A stretch of DNA of 64,000 bases from Magallana gigas (taxonomy: Eukaryota), in contig NC_088861.1 of assembly GCF_963853765.1 (NCBI RefSeq), positions 21,548,281-21,612,280 on the forward strand. The letters run 5' to 3'. Made by a program: the position numbers and the translations under genes. The notes under the pieces are model-generated. The model saw only the letters and a program-made list of their open reading frames with translations. It was not told the origin of the DNA and searched no databases. Of the stretch, positions 7,683 to 46,607 are shown piece by piece. Position 1 is the stretch's first letter; every line of letters starts with the position of its first letter.

Positions 7683-8313
7683 AATAATCAAAGTACTGAA
7701 GTACTGACGGGAGTTGATTTTATCGATGATCATTTATTTTAAAATCAGCTTATCTTGCATGACAATTAGTTTCTAGTCTGTATTTGAATTACACAGTTTT
7801 TTATTAAATGAATTTTAGACTTTTCTGACAAGAATTTCGAGAAACCTCATATGAATCATGTGCAATATTTAAAGATAGATTTCAAACTATGTATAAGTAA
7901 TTAAAGCAATTCTAAAAATGTTAGGGATCCAAGCACTATTGATATCGAACTCTAGTCGCGTTCAACCAGACTCTCGGCTGTCTCCGTTAATCTCCGACAA
8001 GCAAGAGAGCCTTTCTGCTTCTCGTAGATTTACGGAGACAGCCGAGCGTTTGGTTTAACGAGGCTATATTTAACTCTGGCGTAGGAATACACGAGACTAT
8101 AAAAATATCTTAGTTTTTCGTATTATATAAAATCTGACTTTTTTCAAAGTGTTTTATTGATAAGTTTCCTTAAAAAACAATGGTTCAGCATACATTACTT
8201 TGAACTTTTCTATTATTTTCAAGAACTAAGTCTTGTGCTTATAGGTCCAGACACTGTTTCACTTTCGGTTTGCCAGAGTAACTGCATAGGAGAGTTGATT
8301 AAAATCAACTCCC
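7683..8313 (+). repeat. Dispersed repeat family A, copy 1 (carries foldback MITE copy 2)
   Basis: Homologous to 50927-52043 across both sides of the foldback element. Possible short TIR GGGAGTTGATTTTA. Confidence 0.6.
7953..8066. mobile_element. Foldback MITE, copy 2 (inside repeat family A, within the MULE-remnant intron)
   Basis: Same arms with a few substitutions. Flanked by tatcgaactc and tatttaactc, an 8/10 target duplication. Confidence 0.75.
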
Positions 8314-9357: not shown

Positions 9358-11275
9358 GCTGTCCTCTGCTGTACCAAAGAATGTTCAATATAGTTAAGTT
9401 CTGGTAAAAAAAAATACTGTACCATAATAATTGTATTATTCAACATTGCTACTAAACACTTTATGACTGAGTCGAAAAACATAATGCAAAAAACTGGTTG
9501 TATCATGTTAAAGATTTTTTTGCCTATGTTTAAAATTCATAATGAATAAAAAGGTGGATGTAGCTAAGAATATAATAATCGTTGTTGTTCTTGAAAGGAT
9601 TTTAATGAATTAAATTTAATTTAGACAAAATTACAAAATGAGTAAATAATTGAATACAACTACAAGCAATTTAGTTCACACAGTATCAATAATTTCAGTG
9701 GCAAGTGAAAAAGTTGCTCCTTAATGGTAAACAAAATGTAGTAAACATACTACAATGCAAGAAATTAAGGTATATCACTCCTCATGTTTTGATTTCATTG
9801 CGCAGATGTTCATTATATTTTAAATGAATATGATTTTATTAATTTAAACCTCACAAAAAGATCATCATTTCATAATTACACAACATTCGTAAAGAAAATC
9901 CATTTGAATTCAAGAAACGAACAAGTTTTGGGGGGAACTATTTTCTCGTGCGGAAGGTTTTTAAGTCGAAAATGACAGAAACAAGCAATTTTATGAATTT
10001 TCAATATACTTTTCTTTTTATAATACTTTATTCACTATTCTCATTTTTAACATTTGATAGGTTTGTGACATGTTCTATAGGTTCTCTATGACTTGTACTA
10101 AACTAAATTTTGAGAGAGTGGTAGACGTTTAGCATAAAATCATGCAAATATATAGAAAATGTCTAAATTTTTTGAAGCCAAATTTTGCAATAATTTTACC
10201 TTTGAAGCCATGTATCTAAAATTTGAAATCACTGACCCCCATGTTTTATTATGTCAAAATGATACTGAATACATATGTAGGCAAACTGGATTAATCTTCT
10301 AAAATTCTTGATATTCAAAACTATTATAAAAATTGTCTATTTTAAGTGCAAAAAGGTCATACAAACATTTATGCAGTTCATGCAATTTTTTTTTTTCGTA
10401 ATCCCTCTATTCAGTGTGACCATTGTACATAATTAAAAGCAACATTTAAAAAAAAAGAGTTTGCTTAATCGAAAATTCTGAAACAAATCCTAATCAGGCT
10501 GAAATCGCATTTTAGGTGCAAAAAGGTCAAATTTATTTGACCATAACTCAGAGGGATGAACACTGACCTCCCATTATCTTTGTATTATTTAAGTGTGTTT
10601 TGTCTACAGATTTCAATAGAATACTTCTCAAGAAGTTCTTGATACAAGAAGATTGAGGAGTGGGATACCTTAAGAACATGATAAGAAAATAATTTAAAAA
10701 CCACAAACTAATCATTTCTGATATTCAATCCGTCTCCTTTAATTATTTCTGCCTATAGTAATTATTGTAAGTATTTTTACTACATTTAGCAATAATATGG
10801 TTATATGGATTAATTGTCTCAATTCATCTTTTAACTAGGCCTATTTTCTCCGTAATTAGCTGGGGGAGCGCCTCTGATATGCTCATTGATGAATGTGAAG
10901 ATCATCTCGCCAAGATGAAACTAGACTGGACCGATAACAACCAAATGTGCAAATGTTCATAAAATTTTCATAGAAAGATAAATTCTTACATAAATTATAT
11001 CAATTCATTCAATTCAAAATATATGTTAAGCCAGTAGCTAGTGAATTATTTCGTCGTAAGTAATAAGTTACATTGAAAAACTCACCTTTCTTCATAAACA
11101 GACATTTCCATGATAAAGGTGCAGTCGTACATTGTGTAACAAATTCAATTTTTTCAAAAATGTGTGTCTAGAATGAGAAACAAAGAGATAAATGAATAAT
11201 ATACAAATGCCGAATTCACCAGATGCCGAGTTAACCGGCTGCCGAGTTCACTATTCTCGGTGCCGAGTTCACCAG

Positions 11276-11376
11276 TAGTCTCGTTCAACCAGACGCTCGG
11301 CTGTCTCCGTAAATCTCCGACTCTCTGCTCGTCGGAGTTTTACGGAGACAGCCGAGCGTCTGGTTGAACGAGACTA
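11276..11376. mobile_element. Foldback MITE, copy 3, with a perfect 10-bp target duplication
   Basis: Element TAGTCTCG...CGAGACTA is flanked on both sides by AGTTCACCAG (11266-11275 and 11377-11386). Confidence 0.85.
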
Positions 11377-11401
11377 AGTTCACCAGGTGCCGGGTTAACC
11401 C

Positions 11402-13096
11402 TGTGTCATATAATATTTTGATACTGCGAAATATTGAACCCGGGTTCAATATATTATGCGATATTATGAACCCGGGTTCAAAAAATCGCTGCGATATATT
11501 GAACCCCCCCCCCTAAAATATCGAACCCCCTACTTATTTCCAATTCCCTTTGGAGAGGGGGTTCAGAATATTATGGCTGCGATATTTTGAACCCCCCTCT
11601 ATTTTCTATTGCTATTAGAGAAGGGGTTCAAAATATTATGACTGCGATATATTGAACCCCCTTCTTATTTCCAATTCCCTTTGGAGAAGGGGTTCAAAAT
11701 ATTATGGCCGCGATATTTTGAACCCCCTCTCCAAAGGGATTTGGAAATAGGTTGGGGTTCAATATATCGCAGCCATAATATTTTGAACCCCCTCTCCAAT
11801 AGCAATGAAAAATAGAGGGGGGTTCAAAATATCGCGGCCATAATATTTTGAACCCCTTCTCCAATGGGAATTAGAAATACACATAGAGTTAGGGGGTTCA
11901 ATATATCGCAGCCATTATACATTTTGAACCCCCTCTCCAAAAGCAATAAAAAATAAAGGGGGGGGGGGTTCAAAATATCGCGGCCATAATATTTTGAACC
12001 CCCTTCCAATGGGAATTGGAAATAGGTTGGGGGTTCAATATATCGCAGCCATAATATTTTGAACCCCCTCTCCAATAGCAATGAAAAATAGAGGGGGGTT
12101 CAAAATATCGCGGCCATAATATTTTGAACCCCCTCTCCAATGGGAATTGGAAATAGGTTGGGGGTTCAATATATCGCAGCCATAATATTTTGAACCCCCT
12201 CTCCAGTAGCAATGAAAAATAGAGGGGGGTTCAAAATATAGCGGCCATTATATTTTGAACCCCCTCTCTAATGGGAATTGGAAATAGGTAGGGGGTTCAA
12301 TATATTGCTGCCATAATATTTTGAACCCCCTCTCCAATAGCAATGACAAATAGAGGGGGGTTCAAAATATCGCGGTCATAATATTTTGAACCCCCTCTCC
12401 AATGGGAATTGGAAAGAGGTAGGGGGTTCAAAATATCGCGCCCATAATATTTTGAACCCCCTCTCCAAAAGCAATGAAAATAGAGAGGGGGGGGTCAAAA
12501 TATCGCGGCCATAATATTTTGAACCCCTTCCAATGGGAATTGGAAATAGGTTGGGGGTTCAATATATCGCAGCCATAATATTTTGAACCCCCTCTCCAAT
12601 AGCAATGAAAAATAGAGGGGGGTTCAAAATATCGCGGCCATAATATTTTGAACCCCCTCTCCAATGGGAATTGGAAATAGGTTGGGGGTTCAATATATCG
12701 CAGCCATAATATTTTGAACCCCCTCTCCAGTAGCAATGAAAAATAGAGGGGGGTTCAAAATATAGCGGCCATTATATTTTGAACCCCCTCTCTAATGGGA
12801 ATTGGAAATAGGTAGGGGGTTCAATATATTGCTGCCATAATATTTTGAACCCCCTCTCCAATAGCAATGACAAATAGAGGGGGGTTCAAAATATCGCGGT
12901 CATAATATTTTGAACCCCCTCTCCAATGGGAATTGGAAAGAGGTAGGGGGTTCAAAATATCGCGCCCATAATATTTTGAACCCCCTCTCCAAAAGCAATG
13001 AAAATAGAGAGGGGGGGGGGGGTCAAAATATCGCGGCCATAATATTTTGAACCCGGGTTCAATATATCGCGGGGTTCAAAATATTATATGACACCG
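11402..13096. repeat. Foldback-like element or satellite array: 131-bp dimeric unit of palindromic 65/66-bp subunits, with terminal inverted repeats
   Basis: Period 131 bp, for example ttcaat at 12034 and 12165. Each subunit is a dyad: gaaccccctctcc...agaggggggttc plus aaaatatcgcggccataatatttt. Orientation flips near 11730. The two ends are inverted repeats of each other: start tgtgtcatataatattttga, end tcaaaatattatatgacaccgg. Confidence 0.8.
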
Positions 13097-14787
13097 GTAC
13101 CCAAATGGAACGTAAAATGACCCAAATTGACCCAAATGGAGCCCAAATGGAAACAAATGAACCCAAATGGAATCACAAATGGAAACAAATGGAAATTGAA
13201 TGGCATAATTGAAGATTTTATTTAATAATTTCAATCATTATTTGATGAATAATCAATAAATATAAATTCTAAAACGACATTTTCTTGTGTTGTTAATGAT
13301 TTTTTATTGATATATGAATTTATATATAACTATAAATAAAACTGTTGATATATAATCATATCGAAATATCTTTAAATTATAACAATATAATTCAAATATT
13401 TATTTTCGATCTTGGTTAAATAAATCCACAATGAACCAGCAACAATTGCCAACATGGTTCTAGATCAAATATCGGACAGATTGTTGCACCAGTTTTACTT
13501 CCCAGATGCCAACGACACTGCCGTCAGGGCAAGCGGTGATGGGGATTGCCTGTTCAACGCCGTGTCCACATTGATGATTTACTCAACCATAAAATGTGAC
13601 ATCAAATGTGACAAACCAAATAGTGACTTGTGAAAAATCATTATAATAATAAAAACACCAATTTATGACTTTTTTCATAAAAGAACTTATTAATATAATT
13701 GTTCTTGAGTAAGATTGTTTGAGGTAACTGAGTCCGGGCCCTGGTAGGGCGTCGTGTTTAACACGATAGGAACAGTTTCTTAATTTAATACAGTCTGATA
13801 TTTCTGTTTGTACAACGATGTAGTTACAATATTAATATATGATTTATTAATAGTTTAATGGTACCAAGTGCTGAAAATATTTGATGTAGAATTATAAGAA
13901 AAATGTTATTCTATCTAGGGAAATATGCATAAATAATAGTTGTCTTCTAAATATAGATGTAAAAATGTATATAAGTTAGTTAGATGGCAAATTATTGTTA
14001 TGCATGTTAAATAATTTAGGGGCTGTAAATACATGTACAGTGCTGTTCTGTTGTTTCTTTTAATAGTGCATTTAATCATTCAAATAGTAGCTCAAACCAA
14101 TCCTGTAGTGCATGTTTTGATATTATGTTTTTTGTTTGCTTATACATGTAAAGTATGTGGTTCATTTTTCATGCATCAATTTTTGAATTAAGTTTTTGAT
14201 TTTCAAATCGATTTTTGGGCTAATTTTTTTTTAAGGTCTTATGAAATTCTAAGTAACCATTAATTATTTTAACATACATATTTTATTTTTAAACAAAAAA
14301 ATTTTTTTTTTTTAATATTCTGCTCGGAAATTAGGCCCTATAATGTTTACGTTTAATTTTTCAATTCGTTCTTTTGACTTTAAATATTTTTATTTGTAAT
14401 TATTTCAATTTGTTCTTTTGGCTTTAAATATTTTTTATTTCAAAATTATGGCCTCCACGTGGCAAGAGCTGGACAGCGTTATACTACTTATAACGGCAAA
14501 CAATCCCATAAATAGATTAAAAAAAATTAAATCATGCATTTAAATCGTGAAACAAATTTATAAGGCTACATTATCTAATTCTTTTTCGATTTGGTCAAAA
14601 ATTGTTGTTCAATGTTTTTTGTTGTTGAAAATTTTCAATAAAAAACTCATTTATTAAAAATAATGATTGAAATTTTTAAATAAAATCTTCAATTATGCCA
14701 TTCAATTTCCATTTGTTTCCATTTGTGATTCCATTTGTTTCCATTTTGGTCATTTTACGTTCCATTTGGGTCCATTTGGGTAAATCG
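13097..14787. mobile_element. Non-autonomous TIR element, family B (CCCAAATGGA-rich termini), copy 1, left end truncated
   Basis: Ends are ...cccaaatggaacgtaaaatgacccaaatt... and the inverse ...ccatttgggtaaatcgacgcaccc. It has no ORF. Its left terminus lacks the terminal GGGTGCGTCGATT and abuts the foldback-like array. Confidence 0.7.
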
Positions 14788-16497
14788 ACGCACCCAAATG
14801 GAGCCCAAATGGAAACAAATGGAAACCCAAATGGAATCACAAATGGAAACAAATGGAAATTGAATGGCATAATCGTAGATTTTATTTAATAATTTCAATT
14901 ACATGATGAGTAATCAATAAATATAAATTCTAAAACGACATTTTCTTGTGTTGTTAATGATTCTTTATTGATATATGAATTTATATATAACTATTAATAT
15001 AACTGTTGATATATAATCATATGGAAATATCTGATTCAACCATCATATGTGACATCAAATGTGACAAACCAAATACCACCGAATGTGATAAACCAAATAG
15101 TGACTTGTGAAAAATCATTATAATAATAAAAACACCAATTTATGACTTTTTTCATAAAAGAACTTATTAATATAATTGTTCTTGAGTAAGATTGTTTGAG
15201 GTAACTGAGTCCGGGCCCTGGTAGAGCGTCGTGTTTAACACGATAGGAACAGTTTCTAAATACAGTCTGATATTTCTGTTTGTACAACGATGTAGTTACA
15301 ATGTTAATATATGAGTTATTAATAGTAAAGTGGTACCTATAAAAACTTATTAATGAAATTGTTTTAGAATAAGATTGTTTGAGGTAACTGAGTCCGGGCC
15401 CTGGTAGGGCGTCGTGTTTAACACGATAGGAACAGTTTCTAAATACAGTCTTATTTCTGTTTCTACAACGATGTAGTTACAATGTTAATATATGATTTTA
15501 TTAATACCGAGCGCAGCGAGAGGCGGGCGAAGCCCGCCTCGCGAAGCGAGGATTAATGGTAACACGTATATATAAGAAAATCAGTGAAAAATGAAAGTTG
15601 AATCAGGGGTACTAAGGCCCAAAATAATTTCTTCCAGCCCTGGGCGCCGCCATATTGGCAGCCATTTTGTTTTTAAAAAGTTAGTTCGATCATTGATTGA
15701 CTGGTACTTATTGATGTTTATTGCCCCTAAACTCAATTAAAATGTTCCAGTGTTTCAATGGAAGGTAATTTTAATTAAAAGAAATAAAAGAGGACACCAG
15801 ATAAGTTCCAATAGTGCTTTAATCAAGAAACACGACTAGGTGTATGTATGTCTTATCAAATTATCAGATGGAAAATAAAAACATTAACATCAAGGAACTG
15901 ATCTTTTAGATACTGAATAAAGTATTCAATTTTATTACCGCGGCATTTATATGAATTAAATCGATAAACAATGAAAGAAGAAGTTAAAAAAAGTTCGGAA
16001 TAATAAACGTAACTCTCTTCGGCTATTTCCGAAGACAAAACGTTGTACGTTTTACGTCTGAAAAATGACGTCATAATGTAGACAGAGCACGCGACGTTTA
16101 GTAAACTTTGGCTAATGATTTGAGTAGGCAACCAGGCGAACCCTACTGTGTGCGTTTCATATAAATTTAATTTGTTCTACAAAAATCAAACTGCACAGTG
16201 TGAAATCTGCGCTCGGTCCAACGGTCACACCGTTTATATATTAGTTAAGTGGTACCAAGTGCTGTAAATATTTGATGTAGAATTATAAGAAAAATGTTGT
16301 TCAATGTTTTTTTTTTAAATTTTCAATAAAAAAAACTCATTTATTAAAAATAATGATTGAAATTATTAAATAAAATCTTCAATTATGCCATTCTATTTCC
16401 ATTTGTGATTCCATTTGGGTCCATTTGTGCTCCATTTGGGTCCATTTGGGTCATTTTACGTTCCATTTGGGTCCATTTGGGTAAATCGACGCACCCT
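14788..16497. mobile_element. Family B element copy 2, head-to-head with copy 1, containing an internal duplication and a nested 727-bp insertion
   Basis: Starts aaatggagcccaaatggaaac, shares internal sequence with copy 1 (15040-15500 matches 13560-13870), and ends gggtaaatcgacgcaccc at 16497. It is interrupted at 15509-16235. Confidence 0.55.
15509..16235. mobile_element. Unclassified 727-bp insertion inside family B copy 2, starting with GAA-triloop hairpins
   Basis: Absent from the homologous site in copy 1 (ttattaata|gtttaatggtacc). Begins CCGAGCGCAG followed by hairpins ggcgggc-GAA-gcccgcc and cctcgc-GAA-gcgagg. The inverse CTGCGCTCGG lies near the other end, which also contains a TGACGTCA motif. 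Confidence 0.45.
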
Positions 16498-17499: not shown

Positions 17500-18540
17500 A
17501 CGTAGCTTAATACATATTCTCTTTTGAGAAGTGGACAGGCATAGCCTACATCCACTTCTCTTCGCAAGCCCTCATATTTTGATTCTGAAAAACGTGTAAA
17601 TGTTGGAACCAAAGACGGTTTACGTTTCGACTCATGTTTCCACTCCACTTTCCCTGAATTTTCGTAACAGACCTACTATTTCTACATTTTAAACATTATT
17701 GCATCCATATATCACAAAAAAATCAACACTAACTCGCTGTCAAATCATTTTCGCAACTTCTACATCCCGGGTTTAAATTGTGTGTATCACATTGTTTATC
17801 TAGGTCAGCGCAGATTGAATGTTTATGTTTCGGATAAAATTGGAAACCTATTTAAGACAATAATGTCGAAAACGTAACTGAATCAACTTAATCTTACAAT
17901 GTATAAACAAATACTGAGCCAAATAATTACAAAGTGGTATGTCTTCCCTTTTTAACCATCTCTTATGGTGACAAAATTTGTCTACATCTGTTTTTAACAA
18001 TAAAATGAACATTGATTAATATAGCATACAAGAAAGATTAAAATAAAGAGTTTTATGTGACAAAGTTACTTATTTTATTGTATGCATTTGTGTTAATTTG
18101 TCTTAAATTGTAAAACCGTTCTATATAGCTCTGTGAATTTTAGAAAAATACCTTTAATCTAAAGTCTACAATCGGAGCACTATTTTCCGTTTTTTCCGAC
18201 TCTAAATTTTCTACTTTTTAAACCACCTATAGCGAATGATCTCATAATTTAAAACCGGAATGTAGAAGTTGAGAAAATGATTTGACAGCGGGTTAGTGGT
18301 GTTTTGTTTGTAATATATGGATGCATTTATGTTTAAAATGTAGAAATAATGGGTCTGTTACGAAAATTCAGGGAAACTGGAGTCGAAACATGGGTCGAAG
18401 TGTAAACCGTCTTTGGTTCTGACATTTACACGTTTTCCAGAATCAAAATATGAGGGCTTGCGAAGAGAAGTGGATGTAGGCTATGCCTGTCCACTTCTCA
18501 AAAGAGAATACTTAATACATAGCTTTGTTTACCTACCTGA
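17500..18540. mobile_element. About 1-kb element with roughly 270-bp terminal inverted repeats, in RPL24 intron 2
   Basis: 17520-17790 is the reverse complement of 18250-18530, for example gagaagtggacaggcatagcctacatccacttctc against its inverse. It has no ORF. Confidence 0.55.
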
Positions 18541-18884: not shown

Positions 18885-19795
18885 GGTGCATCGATTTACC
18901 CAAATGGAACGTAAAATGACCCAAATGAACCCAAATGGAAACAAATGGAAATTGAATGGCATAATTGAAGATTGTATATATAATAATTTCAATTATTATT
19001 TTAAATATATTGAGTTTTTTTAATTGAAAAATTTCTGACCAAATGGAAAAAAGAATTTGATAATGTAGCCTTATCAATTAGTTTCATGATTTAAATACAT
19101 GATTTAGATATTTTTTTTCGAATCTATTTATTGGATTGTTAGCCGTTATAAGTAGTATAACGTTGTCAAGCTCTTGCCATGTTGAGGCCATCCTAATAAA
19201 TATTGAAAGCCAAAAGAATAAATTGAAAAATTAAACATATAAATTATAATTTCCGACCAAAAAAAGATTTTTATGTTTTAAAAATAAAATATGTATTTTC
19301 AAATGATTATAATAGTTACTTAGAATTTCATATGACCTTAAAAAAATTCAGTCCAAACATCGATTTATTTTAGAAATCAAAAAGTACTTCAAAATTTGAT
19401 GCATGGAAAATGAACCACATACTGTACATGTATAAGCAAACAATACTAACTTATATACATCTATATTTAGAAGAAAACTATGGTACTTTATTTTCCAATA
19501 TCAAAAATAAATATTTGAGTTATATTGTTATGATTAAAAAGGTATCTTGAAATGATTAAATATCAATAGTTATATTAACAGTTATATATAAATTCATATA
19601 TCAATAAACAATCATTAACAACACAAGAAAATTGTTGTTTTAGAATATTCATATTTATTGATTCTTCATCATATAATTGAAATTATTACATAAAATCTTC
19701 AATTATGCCATTTAATTTCCATTTGTTTCCAATTGAGTTTCCATTTGGGTTTATTTGGGTCATTTTACGTTCCATTTGGGTAAATCGACGCACCC
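18885..19795. mobile_element. Family B element copy 3 (complete, 911 bp) with 9-bp target duplication, in RPL24 intron 2
   Basis: Termini are ggtgcatcgatttacccaaatggaacg... and ...cgttccatttgggtaaatcgacgcaccc. Flanked by CATTTTTCT on both sides (18876-18884 and 19796-19804). Confidence 0.8.
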
Positions 19796-22537
19796 CATTT
19801 TTCTATTAGTGGATGAACGTAGTTTAAACACAAAGGTATTTATTATTTTCGAAATATCAAGCGAAGAGTGGTGGAAGCAAAAGCTCGGGATAGAGTATAG
19901 CTACTCAATCATACTTTTGTTTTAAAAGGGCATTTGTACAGGATATCCCATAATAGCTGATACCATTAATTCTATGAATAACTTTTGATTAAGTTAATTT
20001 GACAAAAAATTAAATTTAATTGATCTGATACATTCACACATTTTATACATTAAATGTTTTGTAATTCTGTGAGTTAAATGACAAATAAAAATCAGTCCTT
20101 GTACTTCTGTGTATTTTGGAGGCATTAGTGCAACCCTTTGACCCAATTACAACCGTTGTGTAGCGATTCTGTTTAATTTTGTAGACAACTGTAAACAAAT
20201 GGTTTTATAATTATTTTAGCAATAATTTGGCAGTATTATTAACTAATTACAAGTTTCAAACTAATAGTAATGTCAGCATGAAAAGTAATAAACATCAGTT
20301 GTAATTTTCAATGCACAGTATCACCTGTTTTTATAACCCATGAAGATAAGACAGTCGCAAGTTCCTAATCACAAAAGGGTTTAACTGAGCATGTGAGAAC
20401 GTCTTATGAATTTGATGATAATCATTTTATTGCCTTTGAGTTTAATTAATTAACACAATCGTAAACTCTGCATACAGGGCGACTTCAACTTCTCTTTCGG
20501 AGGAAACTCCGGCAAAGTTGCCGATCACAAAGCAAGTCGTCCTCTAGGTTGGTCACTGTATAATAATACTTTAGTCTTTTAATGGATATTGGATAATAAA
20601 AGGATATCTGTCACATGACTATCAATGATAACGACTTACTATCGATTGTCACCGACCTGCTGCCTTCAGCGATGATTTTTCGATATTCGGCGACTATCGT
20701 AACAACACTAGAGGATTACCTGTGCACCTGTTAACCCTTAGCTGCCTCACCTGACAATTGTCGCACCGAAATTTCAGGTCTGCCACTGCTATGCGCGACT
20801 ATGGTCGTTTTTCCGAGAGCGAGTTATCTAAGGTTTCCACAAGCCTCGCTTTGAGCAAAAACACGATGGCTATGATTGGTCAATTGATGTGTTCGGAAGG
20901 TTTCTAGAGTTTTGCAGAGTTTAAAATAAAGGCTATAGAGCAGTAAACTTCCAAAGAATGTTTTGAATTTGTAGCCAAAGTGGCAAAAGTAGAGTGAAGC
21001 CACGAGACACAAATTTTGGAACTTTTTTCACGGGGATAGCAAAGACGAAAATACTGTTGATGGATTTAATCCTGCAGTACATAACTTAGGAGATGTTAAT
21101 TTATTGATTTATGTGTCTTTAATGAACTTTGTGCCAAGAAATGACCGAGAATTTGATGCCGATCTGGAGGTAGGCTAGTCGCGTGTTGATCCACCGCCAT
21201 TGAATATCCCATCCCATTCACCAGAGAGGAAAAATTAAACACTTAAATGGAGGATTATGAACCTTTATCGTGTCTAAATTAAATTTTTAATGATATTATG
21301 TTTATGGAAATTGTTGTTTAATTGATCAACATCTCTACCGAGAGATTGTGCAGTCTGAGAATGTAAACCAGAACAACATAAAAAAAAAAGCATTGATAAA
21401 GTGTTTCATGTATTTCTTTATTTTTCAGTAATTGTTTACCCAATTTTCAAAATTAAACGAATAAAATTGAATCTCACAATGTATGACTTATTGATATACT
21501 AAAGAACTTTTACAGTCATTTGGGTTCTCAAATATGACAATTGAAGAATGGAACAATGAAAGGCATTAATTTTAATTGATTTTTACATTTGAACATACCT
21601 AGATTGATATATACAAGATAAATGAGGAATATGAGCATTGCATTGAAATCTTCAATATTTTCTCTCGCATTTTAAATATATATAAAGTTTGGTAACTGTA
21701 GCAATAAATATATAGTTGCTGTGATATATTATTTTAAACTCTATGGTCAATTACCATTAATTGTGAATAATTAATTCAGCAGTGGCAGCCATCTTTGCGA
21801 AAGTTAAAGCAGCAGCCTAAGAGTTAAGTGACACCTCCGGATATATATTGTTTTCTTTGGTGTTTCAGAGTAAAATCTGGATGTTAAAAGGTCTTTCTTA
21901 TTACTATATAAGGCCTATGCATTACTATATATGCAACTGATATAAGAAAAACCGGAAGTATTAGTAAAAATTAAATTAGACAAAAACATGTCATACTAAG
22001 ATCACGGTAGACAGTACTTTGATGGATTTTGATATATTTAAGCTACATAGCAGCTTTTTGAGGCCATTTGTCTGAATGAATGAGAAAATAAGTTATGTAG
22101 AGCCCTGTCAGTTTTAGAACATATTAAAGAAAATGCTTTGTTGCTGAGATAAATCATTGAAAATATTAGATATTTTGCAAGTTTAAGATTATTTTAAAAA
22201 GTTTTATGTTAAAAAAATGAGATGTATTAGAACTGTCCACCAATTGAGTATTGTTGCCCATTTTTCTCTATTTTATGATGATAGATAGATAGATACTTTA
22301 TTTCTAATACTGGGCCCTCTTGGGCATATAAAGGTAATAAAGAAAATAATGATAAAAAATAAATAAAAAAATACATACACACATACAAGGAAAGGGAGGG
22401 TTTCAAAATGATAGTTTATATTTATGTTGAATAAAAGATGAGTCAAAGTAGGAATCTATTCAATTTTCTATTTGCTCAACAACTAAAAATTCTGTGAGTG
22501 CTAATTCTCATATATAATAGTAACCATCATGTTGTAG

Positions 22538-24046: not shown

Positions 24047-24725
24047 ATGAGTCTCTATGGAACACCATGGCTGCCTTATAGCATTAGACTATAGGTACAT
24101 TATGTCAAATTACCATTACATTATGTCAAAGTCCATTACGTGGTGTGAATATATCTTTACATTTGGTCAAATCGTTATTACGTGATGTCAAAAGCACGTT
24201 AGGTGAAGTAAACATGTCTTTACATTATGTCAACTTTTCATGTTGTGATGTAAAATCATCCTTACGTTATGCCAACATTGTACAACCAAAGGTCAATACA
24301 TCATGACATTATTTCGACACTGTATTACATGGGGCGAATGTATCCTTACATTATGTCAACATTTTATTACATGCTTTCAATATATCCTTACATTATATCA
24401 ACACCGCAGTACGTATCGCGATTCTATCCTTACATTATGTCAACATTTTATTACATGATATCAATGCGTTTTTACATTTTATCAACACCTTAATACATGG
24501 TGTTAACTCATCCTTTCATTATGTCAACACTTTATCACTTTATGTCAAAAGTACATTACTTGATACGAAAATGTCTTGACTTTTTGTCTAAACTTTATTA
24601 CCTGATGTAAATAAGTCTTTACATTAGGCAAATTCTCTATTCCGTGATGTATACGCTCTATTACTTTAAGTCGAAACATCATTCCGTTATACAAACACGA
24701 AATCCTTGGTCTTTGTATATTTGTC
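24047..24725 (+). repeat. Left arm of a large inverted repeat (about 680-bp arms, 1.6-kb spacer) containing an about 41-bp minisatellite
   Basis: Reverse complement of 26338..27003. Internal repeats of tccttacattatgtcaacattttattacatg. ORFs 24269..24493 and 26544..26780 are identical translations of the two arms. Confidence 0.8.
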
Positions 24726-26337
24726 ATGTTTTAAATACAAAATTTACTATATAGAAACGGTACGCCGATTTACCCAAATGGACCCAGAAAAACCCCAACA
24801 AAATGGACCCAGAAAAACCCCAACAGTAGATACTAGTAAGAAGCAGTGATTTAATCATACAAGAATGAAAATATATATAGGCCTATATATAGGTCTTCTG
24901 AAAGCTGTAAAAGACTTAGTTGCTGACAATTTAATTTCTCGAGAGTGAATGAACATTTACTTAAAATCCAAGTTTTCTCGTGCTCATCGGCCCTTGAATA
25001 TTTAAAATGAAATGGATATAAAATCTAAAAATAACCCCTTCATTGGGGTTTTTTTTGGGGGGGGGGGGGTTTAAAATTTTATTTTTGATTTATACTTTTT
25101 TTACTTCAATAATATTCAAATTACGTTCGTTACTACACACTCAGTCATTTAGCAGTCAGGGTTCTTTATCGTTCCAAAGCCTGTATGTCGTGGCACAGAC
25201 ACCCAGTGCATATTTAATTTTCTAAAATTTAGTCTCAAAGTATTTTGTAGTTAAAATAAAGTATTTAGTAGTTAAAAGTAAACGTTGCTATTGCTATCTT
25301 AAATTAAGGATACTGACCCTAACTACACATGTAGGTATGGCCGTTCTGCTACAAAATTATTATGCTATGAAAATGATTTTTTTCTTATTGCTGCAGAGGG
25401 GGTGGGAATGGTGTTTGTGGAGGGGGTACGCTACGTTCCTCTGAATAAATTTTCTCCTTTTCATCCAAGAAGGCACTTGATAACTTATATGAAATAAAGT
25501 CTACAAATAAATTACAAGAGATCTTTAACCCCTTTAAAGACCTTCTCCATCTTGATATAGATGTTTTTATGAAATGTTTGTTTTAGGTAATTGTTCAGAC
25601 AGAGGGTATAAATCAGAAATATGTCATAATAAAAACGCACACAAATAAGAGGGGAACTGTATTCGCCGATTTCAGAATTATTATAAAGAAAGGCAAACAC
25701 TTTTGGTAGAATCGGTACCGTCTTCAGGGTTTGCCCCATACATGTAACTTACTAAATTTTAATTAAATGAAATAATTCGACAGCATGAGTGTTGGTTTTT
25801 GTAAACAGTTAAATGTATAATCATGTTACATATATTTTCGTTGTAAGTATAGAATAGGCGTGAAAATAGGTTGAGAAGGAAATTTACGCTCATTCCGTTC
25901 TGTTCCGTTGAATACCAATATCCACAGGGGTAATAATATATTGCGGAACGTAACGGAACCAGAATCTTACAAATAAGTCAAGTACTGCTGACATTGTAAT
26001 TTTAAAGATGGTATGCTTTGGAATGCGTTTGGTTTGTTTTAAATCTCTAACTAATAGAGAATATTTTTTGCTAGCTTAAACTAGTTAGTAAGTTCTGCCG
26101 TGAAAATACTGTAATATGTTAATATTAGAGTAGTAAGTAATATAATTATGTATATTTTTCTTTAAACAACGAATTTAAACAATAAAATTAAAGATCAATC
26201 TTATTTTGAAATGAAATGAATAAAAACAAAATAAATCATTATTTTTAAATTTCTATTTTCCCATTGGATGACCCTTTACTGGTTCCGTTCTGTTCCACAA
26301 AGTTTCAATAACCCCTGGATACATTTGGGTAAGCTTA

Positions 26338-27003
26338 CCGTTTCCTTGTATATAGAAAGGCCGATGTATCCGTGTTCGCGTAACGAAATGATGTTTCACC
26401 TTAAAGTAATGGAGCATGTACATCATGAAATAGAGAACTGACCTACAGCAAAGACTTATTTACATCACGTTATTAAGTTTAGACATAACGTCATAAACTT
26501 ATGATATCAAGTTATAAAGGTTTGACATAATAAAACGATATATTTACACCATGTAATAAAGTGTTGATAAAATGTAAAAATGCATTGATGTCATGTAATA
26601 AAATGTTGACATAATGTAAGGATAGAATCGCGATACGTACTGCGGTGTTGATATAATGTAAGGATATATTGAAAGCATGTAATAAAATGTTGACATAATG
26701 TAAGGATACATTCGCCCCATGTAATACAGTGTCGAAATAATGTCATGATGTATTGACCTTTGGTTGTACAATGTTGGCATAATGTAAGGATGATTTTACA
26801 TCACAACATGAAAAGTTGACATAATGTAAAGACATGTTTACTTCACCTAACGTGCTTTTGACATCACGTAATAACGATTTGACCTAGCGTAAAGATATAT
26901 TCACACCACGTAATGGACTTTGACATAATGTAATGGTAATTTGACATAATGTACCTATAGTCTAATGCTATAAGGCAGCCATGGCGTTCCATAAGTCTCT
27001 TTA
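26338..27003 (-). repeat. Right arm of the large inverted repeat
   Basis: For example, 26941-27000 is the reverse complement of 24050-24110. Confidence 0.8.
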
Positions 27004-28199: not shown

Positions 28200-30060
28200 G
28201 GTGTGAAGCATCTCTATGGTAAGAAGAATCTAAATTGTGAAATTCATGGCTCTACCACCCCTGGGGTGCCACGGGCGGGGCCAAATATGCAAAAAAAGCC
28301 AAATTTTCAAAAATCTTCTTCTCTACTCCCACGCATGTGAGGAAAAAACTGGTTGCATGGTTATGTTGTCCATGAAGCCCTCTACCAAAATTGTGAAATT
28401 TATGGCCCCTGGGTCAGGGGTTCTGGCTCTAGGGTGGGGCCAATATGGCCATATAGTAAAACTGTATTTAACCTTAGAAAATCTTCTTCTCTACTACCAT
28501 ATATTTTTAAAAAACTTAATGCATGATTATGATGTCCATGAAGCCCTCTACCAAAATTGTGAAATTTATGACCCCTGGGTCAGGGGTTCAGGATCTAGGG
28601 TGGGGCCAATGTGGCCAAATAGTAAAAATGTATTAAATCTTAGAAAATCTTCTTCTCTACTATCATACATATTTGTCAAAAACTAAATGCATGATAATGA
28701 TGTCCATGAAGCCCTCAACCTAAATTGTGAAATTCATGACCCCTTGGTCAGGGGTTCAGGCTCTAGGGTGGGGCCAATATGGCCATATAGTACAAATGTA
28801 TTAAATCTTAGAAAATCTTCTTCTCTACTCCCATATATATTTGTCAAAAACTAAATGCATGATCATGATGTCCATGAGGCCCTCTATCAAAATTGTGAAA
28901 TTAATGACCCCTGGGTCAGGGGTTCAGGCTCTAGGGTGGGGCCAATATGGCCATATAGTAAAAATGTATTAAATCTTAGAAAATCTTCTTCTCTACTACC
29001 ATATATATTTGTTAATAACTAAATGCATGATTATGATGTCCATGAAGCCCTCTACCAAAATTGTGAAATTCATGACCCCTGGGTCAGGGGTTCAGGCTCT
29101 AGGGTGGGGCCAATATAGACAAATAGTAAAAATGTATTAAATCTTAGAAAATCTTCTTCTCTACTACAATATATTTTTGTTAAAAACTAAATGCATGATT
29201 ATGATGTCCATGAAGCCCTCTACCAAAATTGTGAAATTCATGACCTCTGGGTCGGGGGTTCAGGCTCTAGGGTGGGGCAAATATGGACAAATAGTAAAAA
29301 TGTATTATAACTTAGAAAATCTTCTTCTCTACTACCATATATATTTGTCAAAAACTAAATGCATTGCTATGATGTCCATGAGGCCTTCTACCAAAATTGT
29401 GAAATTCATGACCCCTTTGTTAGGTGTTCAGGCTTTAGGGTGGGGCCAATATGGCCATATAGTAAAACTTTTTTAAATCTTAAAAAATCTTCTTCTCTAC
29501 TCCCACACATGTGAGCAAAAATCTGAATACATGGTTATGATGTTCATGAGGGCCTCTACTAAAATTGTGAAATTCATGACCCCTTTATTAGGTGTTCAGG
29601 CTCTAGGGTGGGGCCAATATGGCCATATAGTAAAAATGTTTTAAATCTTAAAAAATCTTCTTCTCTACTCCCACACATGTGGGCAAAAAACTGAATACAT
29701 GGTTATAATATCCACAATCTCCTTTACCTAAATTGTGAAATTCATGGCCCCTGGGTCAGGGGTTCAGGACATGAAGGGGGGGGGGGGGCGCAATATAGTG
29801 TTAATGCATATAATGTTTAAAAATTTTCTTCTCTATTCTCACACATCTGTATAAAAAAACTGACTTATAATTATGTTTACCAGGAAGTCCTCTACTGAAA
29901 TTTTAATTTTCATGTTCCCCTCAAGGATGGGTTTTGACTCTAGGACAGGGCCAAAATGGATGTATAGATGTTAATGCATATAACGCTAAAAAATTATTTT
30001 CTTTACTCCCACACATCTGAAAGGAAAACTGAATTCATGATTTTGTAGACCAGATCTTTT
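28200..30060. repeat. Satellite array with 168-bp unit, about 11 copies, degenerating at the right end
   Basis: gatgtccatgaagccctctaccaaaattgtgaaatt recurs at 28531, 28699, 28868, 29035, 29203, 29371 and 29539. ORF-track ORFs here are translations of the repeat. Confidence 0.85.
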
Positions 30061-38539: not shown

Positions 38540-39205
38540 TCCCCCATCTTCTTTGAAACAGTGCAAAATCCGTGACCAAGAAAGAGCCAATAACTTCCGA
38601 TATTCTACAGCAAATTGTGAAACGTAACGGGACGGGAAGTAGCATTTTACCGGACATTCGAATTTCATGTATGTGTTTATTAAGTTATGCAGCTTTTTGC
38701 GTTTTTCGGACTGGTCAACTTAAAACACTCTGACATCGTATTTTATGAGGATCATCTTTTTTTGTTCATTTCTAAGAGCAAAACGGACAAATACAAGACT
38801 GGAAGTAATGTTTTTGTTTCTAGGACAGATAAAGTAGCATGTCCGTATATGTTAAAATTATATTTGAAAATTGCTGATATTTCTTCAGATTCTGATTGTT
38901 TTATTTTCAGGGCAGTTACTTATTGTAAGAAATCTGTTGAATATAAATTAAGAGATTCTGGACCATTGTTGTTTAGTAGAGCTAGAGTATTATTGCTTGA
39001 AGCATTAGAAAATGTTGGTGTAGATAAGTCCAAATTCGGGCTTCATAGTCTTAGGTCTGGGGGCGCTACCGCGGCTGCCAATTCTGGTGTGAGTGACAGA
39101 CTGTTCAGGAAGCATGGCAGGTGGCGTTCCGACAATGCTAAAGATGGTTATGTGCATGAAATTGTGAAGTCATTAATGTCTGTGTCCAAGTCTTTGAATA
39201 TTTGA
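38540..39205 (+). pseudogene. Tyrosine recombinase fragment (phage-integrase fold; Crypton/DIRS-like), with a frameshift
   Basis: ORF 38687..39205 contains HSLRSGGATAAANSGVSDRLFRKHGRWRSDNAKDGYVHE, giving the H-x-x-R, HGRW and terminal Y catalytic signature. The upstream segment ...PITSDILQQIVKRNGTGSSILPDIRISCMCLLSYAAFCVFRTG is in another frame. There is no RT nearby. Confidence 0.6.
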
Positions 39206-41049: not shown

Positions 41050-44000
41050 TCATGTATTAGAACATGTAGAAGCAGACACAATGTTAAGTAAAGCCATCTG
41101 GCATCTACTTCGGTCAATGTCTCGTAATGAACCATCATTCATCAACCCTTTCACAAATACTGCTCTTTGTAGCCAATCTGGTTGTGTCTGGTTCATCATG
41201 ACAAACTCCTTTGTCCATGCTGGCATTTTTCTTTGTCTGGTAGATCTTCTTGGGGCTGGAGTAGGTATATCGACATTTTCTCTGGAAGGCATTTCATCTT
41301 CAGAATCATCAGATTCATTGATGTCATCATCAGTGCTATCAACATCATGGATGATATTCTCATCATCATCATCATTGTTGACATCATCCTCTGGTTCATC
41401 ATCATTGATGATCTCTTCAGGTTGGTTCTCAGGCTCTCTATCCTGATGGGAAGCGTCCTCCCCTGAACCAGCTGCTGAAGCTTCCTCAGTTGTAGATTGA
41501 TCGTCATCATCTAAACTGGGAGTAACTTGGGAATTTTCATTTCTAAATGCAGAGTTATCTACATAAGAAAATTCACTGTCACTATCTGAATCATTCTCAG
41601 TAATAATGCTTACTGGTTCTGCCTTCCTTCTCTTTCTAGGAGTAACTGGAGGAGGAGAAGTACTTCTTGGAAGCTTTGTTCCGATAGGTAGAAGCACATT
41701 TCTATGAAGAACTCTAGTTCTTCCTTCTCCATCCTCACGTCTGACTTTATAAACCGGAATGTCATCATTTGCTTTCGCTAAAATGACATAAATATCATCT
41801 TCCCATTTATCAGCAATTTTATGTTTGCCGTCGTATGCCACTTTCTTGACGAGAACTCTGTCACCTTCCTCTAAAGTGATGGCTCTTGCTTTTATGTCAT
41901 AACGGCATTTCTGGTTCTGCTGAGAAGATTTTATTGCTGTTTGTGCCTGTCTGTAAGCATCTTGCAGTCTTTGCTTCAGCTCGGATATGTACTTAGTTGT
42001 ACACTTATCCTCAGAATGGCTGCTGGAAAATCCAAAGACCACATCTACTGGCAAAACTGGTTCTCTTCCAAACATTAGATAGAATGGTGTGAACCCAGTT
42101 GTATCGTGTCTAGTAGAGTTATATGCGTGAACCAGTGTGTTTATATGCTTTTTCCAATTAGCTTTCTGAGCGTTATCTAATGTTCCTAGCATTGATAATA
42201 ATGTCCTATTGAATCGCTCTGTAATACCATTACCCATAGGGTGATATGGCGTTGTCCTGGATTTAGAGATGCCAAATATGGAGCATAATTCCTTAATGAT
42301 GTTGCTGCAGAAATTTGTCCCTTGGTCCGAATGAAGTTTAGCTGGAATCCCGTAATGAACAATAAAATGGTTATAAATAGCTTCTGCTGTTGTTTTGGCT
42401 GTTTGGTTCTTGGTTGGCACGGCAATTGAATATCGTGTGAAATGATCGGTTATGACTAAAATGTTTTGTATTCCTCCTTTCGATGGTTCAAGAGTGAGAT
42501 AGTCCATGCATACAAGCTCTAGTGGCTCTGATGTTCTGATGTTGACCAATTCTGCTCTCTCATTGCTGGTCTTGCTCTTAATGCATCTTTCACAGGAGTT
42601 GATCCAATCAGAAACATCACGCTGCATCTTTGGCCAGTAAAATCTTTGCCTAATTAAGGAGAGAGTCTTATCTCGCCCTAAATGACCCATCTTGTTATGT
42701 AAGTATTCCAAAACAGTGGGATACACTGATGCAGGAATTACATATTGCTGATGAGTATTGTCATCTACTTTGACTTCTCTGAGTAAAATACCATCTTTTA
42801 CTCTAAGTTTGGCAAAGTTCCTGTGGTAAACAAAATCATCTTCAGTAATAAGTGTCTCTCGTTTGGGTCTAATACATTCCTGTACCTTGTTTTTCCAAAA
42901 ACTAACAGTAGGATCTGTGTTTTGGATTTCCATGATATCCAAATACTTTCCAATATCTGTACAAGGTTGTACTTGGTTGCAAATAGCATCATCTATAGCA
43001 AGAGATTCTGCATATGGCTGTCCAGTTGCAAGCTGGCAAATTGCCTTAATGGTGTCACTAGATACTGTTTCCACTTCCTTTAATCTGGATAGTCTATCTG
43101 CATCTATATTTGTTTTCCCTGGTTTGTAGATGATCTTGAAATTAAATGAAGCTAATGCTGAAATCCATCGATGTCCAGTTGCATCCAATTTTGCTGAAGT
43201 TAAAACATAGGTAAGGGGATTATTGTCGGTGTATACTACAAATTCTTTGCCTTGAAGGTAATCTGAAAATTTTTCTGTGACTGCCCATTTAAGTGCCAAA
43301 AATTCCAGTTTGTGAGTAGGATAATTCTTTTCAGATTTACTCAATCCTCGACTAGCATATGCTATAACTCTATCCATTCCATCCTGCTCCTGATATAGCA
43401 CTGCGCCTAGTCCTGTCTGACATGCATCGGTATGGAGCTTAAAAGGTTTGTCGAAGTCTGGGTAACCTAGGACGGGTGGTGATGTAAGTTTCTGCTTAAT
43501 GAGGTCAAATGATGTTTGCTGTTCCTTCTCCCACCTCCACTTTGGATCCACTTTCTTACTTCTTGATTTTTTTCCTGTGGCCATGATATCTAATAAAGGT
43601 CTAGCAATTTTAGAGAAATCATGAATAAATTTTCTATAGTATCCTGCAAACCCTAAAAATTGTCTTACCTCTTCAGGATTCTGTGGAATAGGCCAGTTTT
43701 TAACTTTAGCAAGTTTATCAGGGTCTGGCTCAACCCCATGCTCGGACACAATGTGTCCTACATATTTAACCTTCTTCATAAGTAAGGAACACTTTTTGGG
43801 AGAAAGTTTAAGCCCATAATCTCTAATTCTCTGGAAAACTTGCTGAAGGCGATTAAGATGTTCCCTGAAAGATTTAGAAAATATGATTAAATCATCTAAA
43901 TATACAAAACAAATTTTTAGATGAAGGTCGCCTAAACATTGCTCTTGAAGACGCTGATAGGTTGCAGGGGCGTTTGCAAGGCCAAAACTCATGCGGTTAA

Positions 44001-45456: not shown

Positions 45457-46607
45457 CTATAACAAGTAGGGGGTTCTCTTACCCTGGAACTCTGAGGTTC
45501 CTTAGCAACATCTGTACTTTGGGGCTGAGGAAATCTGGGATATTGCCTATATCCTCCTCTGTATCCTCTTTCCTGTCTGCCTCTCTGATATGGTTGTCTT
45601 GGTGCCCTATAAGGCTGGGGCATAGGAGTATAAGAATACTCTTTTTCCTTCATACTTCTGACCTCAGTGGTTAACTGATTAATCTTAGCTTCTAAGCTAT
45701 CGAATCTGTCAGCTGACTGGTCTTTCACTGTTGCAGCTTTTGCTGTAGCTGATTTCTTTTCTGTAGTTTGTGGATGATGTTCAATCTCCAGTTTTCTCAC
45801 AGATGTTCTCAATTCATCGAATGATTTGCATTTATCATATAGATGTCCACATATATCTTTAAGTGAAGGTCGCAGTCCCTTAAAGAACATGGTTCTTAGC
45901 ATCTCCTCGAACTGACTACGGTCAATGAGGTTTTTCTGTATAGCCTTATTCAGAATATCCTCCAATCTACAACTCCATCTCGCACATTCCTCATCCTCTC
46001 TCTGTCTAGCACTGTAAAACTCTGACAGAATGTCCTCTTTTTCAGCCACTGTGCCATAAATACTGTCTAGCTTCTGTATAATTGAGGATATTCGTGCTCC
46101 TGGTCCAAGATGCATTACCACTCGACTTGCTTCTCCTTTAAGTGAGCGTCGTATAGCATGATGAATGACATCTGGACTATAAGACTCATTATAGAGACAT
46201 TCCACCTCATATCTCCAAACTTCATATGTGGCATCATTCTTAGAATCTCCGGAGAAAAATGGAATTTTAGGGAACTGACTAGGAGGTAGAGATTTGGCAG
46301 GTTGTGAAGAAGCAGAGGCAGTATCAGTACTTACAACCTCTTCCTTGATCTTCTTCTCCTGAACAGCAGATGACATCCATGATAAAAAATCTTCAGCTGA
46401 ATCAGCTTTTGGTTTCATCTTTAGCTGCTTGAGTGCAGATACCACTTTGGCTATCTCCTCTGTTGACATTGATTCCTCAGTGTCTGACATGGTGTTAAAT
46501 TGTATGATTGTAGCTAACACAAGTAATATTGAATATATCAAAGAAAATTCACACAAATTCATGCAACAACACAATGCATGTAACCAAGTAGATGTTGGTA
46601 TAAGCAA
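45318..46607 (-). CDS. Retrotransposon gag with C-terminal CCHC zinc knuckle
   Basis: 429-aa ORF contains CYRCGQVGHIAVGC (CX2CX4HX4C) near its C-terminus. It overlaps pol by 139 nt in a different frame, which suggests a programmed frameshift. Confidence 0.85.
   Translation of the reverse strand: MLIPTSTWLHALCCCMNLCEFSLIYSILLVLATIIQFNTMSDTEESMSTEEIAKVVSALKQLKMKPKADSAEDFLSWMSSAVQEKKIKEEVVSTDTASASSQPAKSLPPSQFPKIPFFSGDSKNDATYEVWRYEVECLYNESYSPDVIHHAIRRSLKGEASRVVMHLGPGARISSIIQKLDSIYGTVAEKEDILSEFYSARQREDEECARWSCRLEDILNKAIQKNLIDRSQFEEMLRTMFFKGLRPSLKDICGHLYDKCKSFDELRTSVRKLEIEHHPQTTEKKSATAKAATVKDQSADRFDSLEAKINQLTTEVRSMKEKEYSYTPMPQPYRAPRQPYQRGRQERGYRGGYRQYPRFPQPQSTDVAKEPQSSRVREPPTCYRCGQVGHIAVGCRVLVNHRRQALNYNTSAPGDKGLVRESRVPEKNN

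Follow-up and report, generated by a model that had tools for sequence, protein, structure and literature searches.

In this study, we examined a 1.7-kb non-coding repeat block in a 64,000-nucleotide stretch of the oyster Magallana gigas (NCBI RefSeq assembly GCF_963853765.1, contig NC_088861.1, positions 21,548,281 to 21,612,280 of the forward strand; the whole stretch is called the window here, and coordinates count from its first letter). The block, 11398-13097, is a single long imperfect inverted repeat, and it is probably one copy of a family of non-autonomous, foldback-type class II transposons with terminal inverted repeats (TIRs), in which arrays of the oyster satellite CgiSat24 form the arms. 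Because its two ends are differentiated into an L and an R type and are conserved as such, we regard it as a discrete element and not as an inverted piece of satellite, and the sequence comparisons point to a dispersed family of such non-autonomous DNA transposons rather than to a one-off rearranged satellite. The satellite itself has been catalogued before; the new point is that we assign it to a foldback element flanked by TA, whose L and R ends are now defined.

The evidence that carries this reading comes from related loci in public contigs. The 102-aa open reading frame (ORF) on the minus strand of the array was translated and searched against a protein collection, where it matched 12 ORFs, each of which had been predicted within a related array on a short contig from Logan, JGI or ENA. 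Ten distinct related loci were recovered in this way, with 67-81% identity to the window element, and their contig flanks match neither each other nor the window, except for two weak matches to other window repeats. The same terminal sequences bound the related arrays in L001, L002/L010, L004 and L007, amid unrelated flanks. L007 contains a second, complete foldback copy in which both ends are present, oriented R...L where the window element is oriented L...R; L002 and L010, one insertion at one locus seen in two sequencing runs, begin with an L end, and L001b and L004 begin with R ends. Alignment of eight ends gave the consensus TA-CCGGTGTCATATAATATTTTGA, which continues in two ways, with GATACYGCG and two GAACCCGGGTTC palindromes in the L type and with GAACCCCGCG and one palindrome in the R type. 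A sister subfamily, consisting of L001 (JGI 3300045951), L003 (ENA ERZ27263980) and L008, is built from a dimer of ~120 bp in which two unlike hairpin units are joined (GAACCCCCCTCCC...GGGTGGGGATTC and TTGACCTCCTG...AGGAGGAGGGGGTTCAA). Within it, two copies of the same orientation lie in L001 with ~200 bp between them, the L001b terminus is of the same R type as that of the window element, and L003 has a ~830-bp unrelated middle domain between its arms, with short ORFs only. An earlier note on this DNA, which had first proposed a foldback-type element here, suggested asking whether other copies of the repeat are simple head-to-tail arrays without inverted termini, which would make this locus a rearranged satellite; the sampled loci did not turn out that way. 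We also scanned DNA collections that hold no oyster DNA, using the R-type terminus TTTTGAACCCCGCRAWATWTTGAA and unit cores as patterns. There were no matches in viral contigs or in bacterial and archaeal genomes, and none in metagenome contigs apart from one chance match in a bacterial gene (L009); the scans missed the L001 contig, though its sequence has both the terminus and the unit-core patterns.

The internal structure of the block largely bears out the earlier note. Its 131-bp higher-order repeat of 65/66-bp subunits was recovered by TRF, which reported a period of 131 in 10.3 copies with 89% matches on the right side (11689-13054) and a period of 66 in 3.2 copies on the left (11518-11728); the 131-bp period reflects a strict alternation of two 65/66-bp subunit types, A and B. 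When the array is split at its stem motif, which is how the subunit boundaries were set, every subunit has 15-bp inverted stems (ATATTTTGAACCCCC / GGGGGTTCAAAATAT) and a loop of A form (AATGGGAATTGGAAATAGGT) or B form (AATAGCAATGAAAAATAG), and a spacer core of 10 nt, CGCGGCCATA, links neighbouring subunits. In the window, 21 occurrences of the unit motif ATAATATTTTGAACCCCCTCTCC were counted, always within the block, against 0 expected. Three spacer motifs are in minus orientation, at 11567, 11632 and 11698, and the plus strand carries 20, the first at 11766 and the last at 13030. Orientation thus flips as had been claimed, yet not near 11730: the centre is at 11703-11712, ~25 bp off. There are three subunits plus a remnant on the left and 20 subunits, or ten dimers, on the right, where the earlier note had given ~2.5 and ~10 units (Table 1). 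Much of the asymmetry between the arms is explained by a very recent, in situ duplication of a ~525-bp block, whose copies are 99% identical (reference stretch 11993-12292 versus 12517-12816) and carry private variants in the same order; because this block was duplicated at 99%, arm length can be said to evolve locally. Complementarity of the short arm to the right arm is 87-91% over individual stretches and 82% for the innermost part (gapped global alignment), and unit similarity is 89-99% inside the window copy versus 67-81% across loci.

At its outer ends, the block carries a 19-mer, GTGTCATATAATATTTTGA, that occurs exactly twice in the 64 kb, once on each strand, where ~0.12 occurrences are expected by chance. 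The inverted outer ends described earlier are therefore present as a 19-bp perfect match, whereas the 20-mer given for them pairs at 19/20 positions only, its first T being unpaired. Beyond the tips, the inverted alignment of the terminal domains reaches ~80% over ~100 bp outside one 29-bp indel, and perfect TTGAACCCGGGTTCAA palindromes lie in both domains, two in the left and one in the right. Read inward, both also hold minus-type spacer remnants, and therefore the whole element is inverted-symmetric from its tips. The left TA precedes ACCCTGTGTCAT, a variant identical to the right end of L002 (TA-ACAATGTGTCAT); the exact left junction is ambiguous because TTAACC also fits the flanking 16-bp repeat.

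Table 1. Anatomy of the foldback element in window coordinates
Feature	Position	Strand	Remarks
Flanking TA, left (putative target dinucleotide)	11396..11397	.	Boundary uncertain by ~3 nt
Left terminal domain (L-type end)	11398..11522	plus	~125 bp; conserved in L002/L010 left and L007 right
19-bp perfect TIR, left	11403-11421	plus	Followed by GATACTGCG
Two GAACCCGGGTTC palindromes	11434-11449, 11467-11480		Within left terminal domain
C10 run	11504-11513		Within left terminal domain
Short arm	11523..11702	minus	Three CgiSat24-type subunits, A, B, A (plus remnant)
Central spacer TATGGCCGCG	11703..11712	.	Sole turn of the foldback; loop of the 141-nt central hairpin; arms meet A-to-A
Long arm	11713..13041	plus	20 subunits = 10 A/B dimers of 131 bp
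Tandem duplication of 8-subunit (~525-bp) block	11989..13041	plus	11989-12513 and 12514-13041
G12 run	13011-13022		Just inward of right terminal domain; symmetric counterpart of C10 run
Right terminal domain (R-type end)	13042..13097	minus	~56 bp; conserved in L001b, L004 and L007 left
One TTGAACCCGGGTTCAA palindrome	13047-13062		Within right terminal domain; followed by CGCGGGGTTCAAAA
19-bp TIR, right	13076-13094	minus	Right domain ends ...ATGACACCGG
Flanking TA, right	13098..13099	.	Doubles as TA inside adjacent family-B terminus

This symmetry bears on the question of whether the foldback shape is original. It has to be considered that the ancestral unit was a simple MITE (miniature inverted-repeat transposable element) carrying tandem repeats, in the order L-end, head-to-tail units, R-end, and that the foldback shape arose repeatedly as a local by-product, through hairpin-primed or template-switch replication or through inversion between palindromic stems. 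Models of this type have been discussed for MITE-derived repeats (PMC8268682). They would find scar-free switch points in stems that are identical both ways, and the window flip indeed lies exactly at a stem-spacer-stem junction. The copy in L002/L010 is of the expected form as well: ~430 bp long, it runs from an L end through four units to a short R tip, and is thus bounded by both termini without any flip. We nevertheless consider such an origin unlikely. Local events predict both polarities and multiple flips per array, whereas the window element, L003, L004, L007 and L011 show one flip each, all of them minus-to-plus (5/5), and no reverse flip was seen. Nor would a simple MITE account for minus-type spacer remnants in the terminal domains of an element that is inverted-symmetric from the tips, and the form of L002/L010 can be explained equally well by deletion between direct GGGGTTCAAAATAT repeats.

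The window is AT-rich and of eukaryotic, not prokaryotic, character, and its matches to CgiSat24 and CgiSat09 place it in C. gigas or a close relative. The subunits identify the array as a known satellite. The 66-bp consensus of CgiSat24, TCAATATATCGCAGCCATAATATTTTGAACCCCCTCTCCAATGGGAATTGGAAATAGGTAGGGGGT, given in Data S1 of the satellitome study on Crassostrea gigas (Tunjic-Cvitanic et al. 2021, PMC8268682), contains our unit motif and corresponds to the A-type subunit plus spacer of the window element; it matches the window at 94-95% over 66/66 bp in 26 BLAST matches, all inside the block and in tandem. CgiSat24 has been catalogued as a 66-bp monomer only, making up 0.04% of the genome, without Repbase similarity and with no transposon assigned (PMC8268682), whereas here it occurs as an A/B dimer of 131 bp that forms the inverted arms of a TIR-bounded element. 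It is found on all 10 chromosomes, with ~2,700-2,800 annotated monomers as read from Tables 1-2 of the same work (PMC8268682), a scatter that fits a transposon-borne repeat; its organisation is not covered there, as that analysis was limited to the 11 most abundant satellites (PMC8268682). It is absent from the 13 satellites common to six oyster species. We found no further mention of CgiSat24 in the literature searched beyond PMC8268682, and a full-text literature search with sequence strings gave no match, the identification having come only from a search of supplements.

The catalogue entry could also be taken to mean that the block is a standalone CgiSat24 array that underwent a local inversion or inverted duplication, in which case the 19-mers at its ends would be mere parts of the array and nothing in it would be mobile. 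The lack of similarity to any transposable element in the catalogue (PMC8268682) would agree with this, the 15-bp inverted stems in each unit could mediate inversions, and the arrays in L005 and L006/L012 have no visible termini. Even so, we hold a rearranged satellite to be very unlikely, since the terminal domains are not array sequence and recur, differentiated into L and R, at the edges of related arrays whose flanks are unrelated, the five flips share one polarity relative to the ends with none reversed, and L007 provides a complete second copy.

That CgiSat24 travels as cargo of a non-autonomous Helitron or Helentron is scarcely plausible to us. The most abundant C. gigas satellites are associated with such elements (PMC8268682, PMC7492417), and a satellite of this kind is present in the same window (28310-29768). 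Against this, the array reaches within ~60-125 bp of TIR-bearing ends, neither Helentron boxes, an adjoining microsatellite nor 5'-TC/CTRR-3' ends were seen (the box sequences themselves were not compared directly), and the published Repbase comparison gave CgiSat24 no Helitron match (PMC8268682). An assembly artefact, by a chimeric foldback read or repeat mis-assembly, is barely conceivable: palindromic repeats are error-prone in assembly and the 99% duplication of ~525 bp could be an expansion or collapse error, so that the copy number of this block is the only part realistically at risk, but a palindrome from a chimeric read would not be expected to have arms as diverged (82-91%) and as unequal as these, and the same architecture recurs in independent assemblies from other samples.

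With respect to the type of transposon, conservation among the copies stops sharply at TA, and nothing upstream of the terminus is conserved. Counting L002 and L010 once, and setting aside the right end of L007 as uninformative owing to its position in a TATATA run, TA is in register at 6/8 informative termini; the other two have TG (L004) and TC (the degenerate L001a). The register is fixed at the right end of the window element, at L001b and at the left ends of L002 and L007, while at the left end of the window element and the right end of L002 the TA lies two bases further out and is followed by AC. Given a TA dinucleotide frequency of 0.088, the chance of at least 6/8 was calculated as ~1e-5. 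No duplication longer than TA was found in the three two-ended copies (window element, L002/L010 and L007); candidates of 3, 4, 8 and 9 bp, TTAA and TWA do not fit them, and the 8-10-bp target duplication of Drosophila FB and Mutator-like elements is present in none. From the TA flanks together with the terminus start, YCRGTGT, we infer a Tc1/mariner-like cut-and-paste enzyme and not a Mutator-like one as in Drosophila FB. We take this start to resemble those of mariner/Tc1 TIRs, as a lead and not as a test.

Several observations weigh against our reading of the block as a mobile foldback element. No transposase or autonomous partner was found, including none sharing its TIRs in the 64-kb window, and since an empty site was not found either, mobility is inferred from the dispersed copies only. 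TA is a weak signature, as a TA 'duplication' is indistinguishable from insertion into T^A of a TIR that is longer by 1 nt, and the terminus exists in two variants, TA-CCGGTGTCAT and TA-ACNNTGTGTCAT. The arrays of L005 and L006/L012 show no terminus within their short contigs. The other copies are 19-33% diverged and not demonstrably from this genome, and nothing shows recent activity here. Finally, we see no indication of a function in the hairpins themselves, a point that requires some detail.

The capacity to form hairpins is considerable. As the earlier note had stated, the subunits are dyads, and the folding energies computed for single-stranded DNA bear out this potential, amounting to -15 kcal/mol (z -4.6) for the B unit, -14.2 kcal/mol (z -4.1) for the A unit, -56.6 kcal/mol (z -14.8) for the central 141 nt (11637-11777) and -238 kcal/mol (z -34) for 11398-12060. 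A covariance model of the unit matched 69 non-overlapping units in other loci, in which 15 outer stem positions were scored. Both sides had the consensus in 731 stem cells and one side had changed in 256, while matching double changes numbered 10 and discordant double changes 11. With no compensatory signal (256 one-sided versus 10 matching changes), the hairpins do not appear to be under selection as such; the stems decay one-sidedly, and the feature that persists is the sequence motif and not the pairing. Rfam gave no match in 10500-14000.

These features can be combined into a mechanism. A transposase supplied in trans would recognise the ~20-100-bp terminal domains, that is, the TIR tip plus the TTGAACCCGGGTTCAA palindromes, would cut at the TA boundaries and would reinsert the element at TA in Tc1/mariner fashion. 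The subunits may be iterated, 'opened' versions of the subterminal palindrome, which they resemble because each 65/66-bp subunit has two inverted copies of its half-site, TTGAACCCC, and they could serve as extra binding sites or be mere passengers. Unequal exchange or slippage in the 131-bp register would make the arms asymmetric, recombination between identical stem motifs would delete one arm and leave MITE-like copies, and transposition of such elements would scatter CgiSat24 across all chromosomes. A more far-reaching version, in which the family is active now or was so recently, targets TA, and has arms of nested palindromes, with hairpin units set within a kilobase-long hairpin, that are iterated transposase-binding palindromes growing by hairpin-templated synthesis, appears improbable to us. 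Were it true, oysters would have a distinct, non-Helitron route by which to generate and scatter satellite DNA, and also a source of cruciform-prone fragile or inversion sites.

A further point against the element as a simple insertion comes from its surroundings. At its right end it is abutted directly, at 13098, by an element of a second family, family B, which starts exactly at the TA of its own terminus; the earlier note had placed a truncated family B terminus immediately beside the block. Intact B ends, GGGTGCRTCGATT-TA-CCCAAATGG, lie at ~18885 and, on the reverse strand, at ~14790 and ~16493, and by comparison with these the right junction looks like what insertion at the TA of a B terminus would give; as a paralogous 'empty' site, the B terminus supplies only the right half. 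In the left flank, the 13 nt of B terminus expected after simple insertion into B are missing and a 16-bp repeat array is present instead, so that simple insertion into a family-B terminus was rejected although the right junction fits. Either rearrangement followed the insertion, or the element came to lie next to B secondarily. The proposal that the element marks an insertion hotspot has not been demonstrated: transposons are simply dense in this neighbourhood, and the missing part of B is not present at the left junction.

The 16-bp repeat array of the left flank (GCCGAGTTCACCAGRT, 11207-11275 and 11378-11397) is split by a palindromic, TA-flanked MITE of ~100-120 bp (TAGTCTCGTTCAACCAGACGCTCGGCTGTCTCCGTAAATCTCCGAC...), which has four copies in the window (11276-11377, 1577-1680, 7947-8066 and 51211-51298). 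The copy nested in the array, at 11276-11377, had been described as immediately beside the foldback element, whose left end is in fact 20 bp away. Family-B elements at 13098-14790, 14792-16493 and ~18885-19800 have inverted ends of CCCAAATGG 10-mers, the intact end being GGGTGCRTCGATTTACCCAAATGG. Two of the copies stand head-to-tail, both without the outermost part of the left end, and copy 1 carries a remnant reading ...RASGDGDCLFNAVSTLM, which may resemble an OTU-protease motif. Beside the third B copy, a 258-nt inverted repeat (17525-17782 and 18243-18500), with 92% complementary arms separated by 460 nt, probably represents a further TIR element.

Elsewhere in the window, a second foldback-like element of a different family occupies 24056-26993, with 509-nt arms that are 95% complementary and a middle domain of 1,920 nt; its arms contain 42/84-bp tandem repeats (24254-24535 and 26514-26791) whose consensus units are reverse complements. 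Tandem repeats also include a 168-bp repeat in 8.7 copies at 28310-29768, with short matches to CgiSat01b (Cg170/HindIII family), a satellite-like array at 56587-56968 with a CgiSat09-like stretch (88%) at 56829-56968, and a 140-bp repeat in 3.6 copies at 59612-60136, relatives of which flank the foldback-family array in contig L008. Judged by eye, two ORFs at 41050-46607 (-), one gag-like with 429 aa and one pol-like with 1,468 aa, apparently belong to a Ty3/gypsy-type long terminal repeat (LTR) retrotransposon, and the translation of a 172-aa ORF at 38687-39205 (+) resembles a tyrosine recombinase. A look-up of the pol-like protein gave no exact match on record.

Oyster genomes serve as a model for satellites that occur as scattered short arrays and not as heterochromatic blocks, and this pattern has so far been attributed mainly to Helitron/Helentron carriers. 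Our findings suggest a second type of carrier, a TA-flanked foldback TIR element, for a satellite previously without a transposon link. The terminal sequences, TA followed by CCGGTGTCATATAATATTTTGA plus TTGAACCCGGGTTCAA, may have practical application in annotating the family, and near-perfect palindromes of 140 bp to >600 bp are candidates for places where replication is disturbed and where deletions and inversions occur.

The window element shares with the foldback class long inverted arms that form most of the element and can fold back (87-91% complementary locally), arms made of tandem subrepeats and unequal in length (3 versus 20 subunits of 65/66 bp), and dispersed copies with common termini in different contexts (L001, L002/L010, L004 and L007). 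The classical foldback architecture claimed in the earlier note is therefore shared, although the element is no relative of Drosophila FB, having TA flanks and no 8-10-bp duplication. FB elements, the subject of work by Potter in 1982 and Truett in 1981, reportedly have long inverted arms of short tandem repeats that are often unequal, most copies being non-coding. FB makes 9-bp duplications and has a Mutator-like transposase, while Galileo of D. buzzatii makes 7-bp duplications and has a P-like one. Both resemble the window element in their long inverted arms of short tandem repeats, without sequence similarity to it. MITEs derived from Tc1/mariner have TA at both boundaries as well, and differ in typically having simple TIRs without kilobase repeat arms. 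Among elements of bivalve hosts, pearl/CvA, the Cg_HINE Helentrons and DTC84 of Donax trunculus likewise carry satellite-like arrays in small non-autonomous elements; these, however, are head-to-tail arrays between Helentron boxes, with a microsatellite, and not inverted arms reaching to TIR tips.

The resemblance in structure is especially marked for Tetris of Drosophila virilis, a foldback transposon in which a satellite was seeded by the internal TIR-220 repeats (Dias et al. 2014, PMC4079207). As satellite-seeding foldback elements were thus already known, the gain from our study is incremental. Tetris, too, is non-autonomous, with long TIRs, an outer flanking domain, variable tandem repeats and a link between satellite and transposon, and it has rearranged, short derivatives (DAIBAM in Tetris), as we see in the oyster family. 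The oyster element is nevertheless no relative of Tetris, and the repeats of the two are unrelated. Tetris differs in its target duplications of 8-10 bp (which suggested the Mutator superfamily), its non-palindromic 220-bp repeats and its middle domain, where the window element has TA flanks, 65/66-bp hairpin units and virtually no middle domain. Different superfamilies are considered to have evolved foldback structures independently of one another (PMC4079207).

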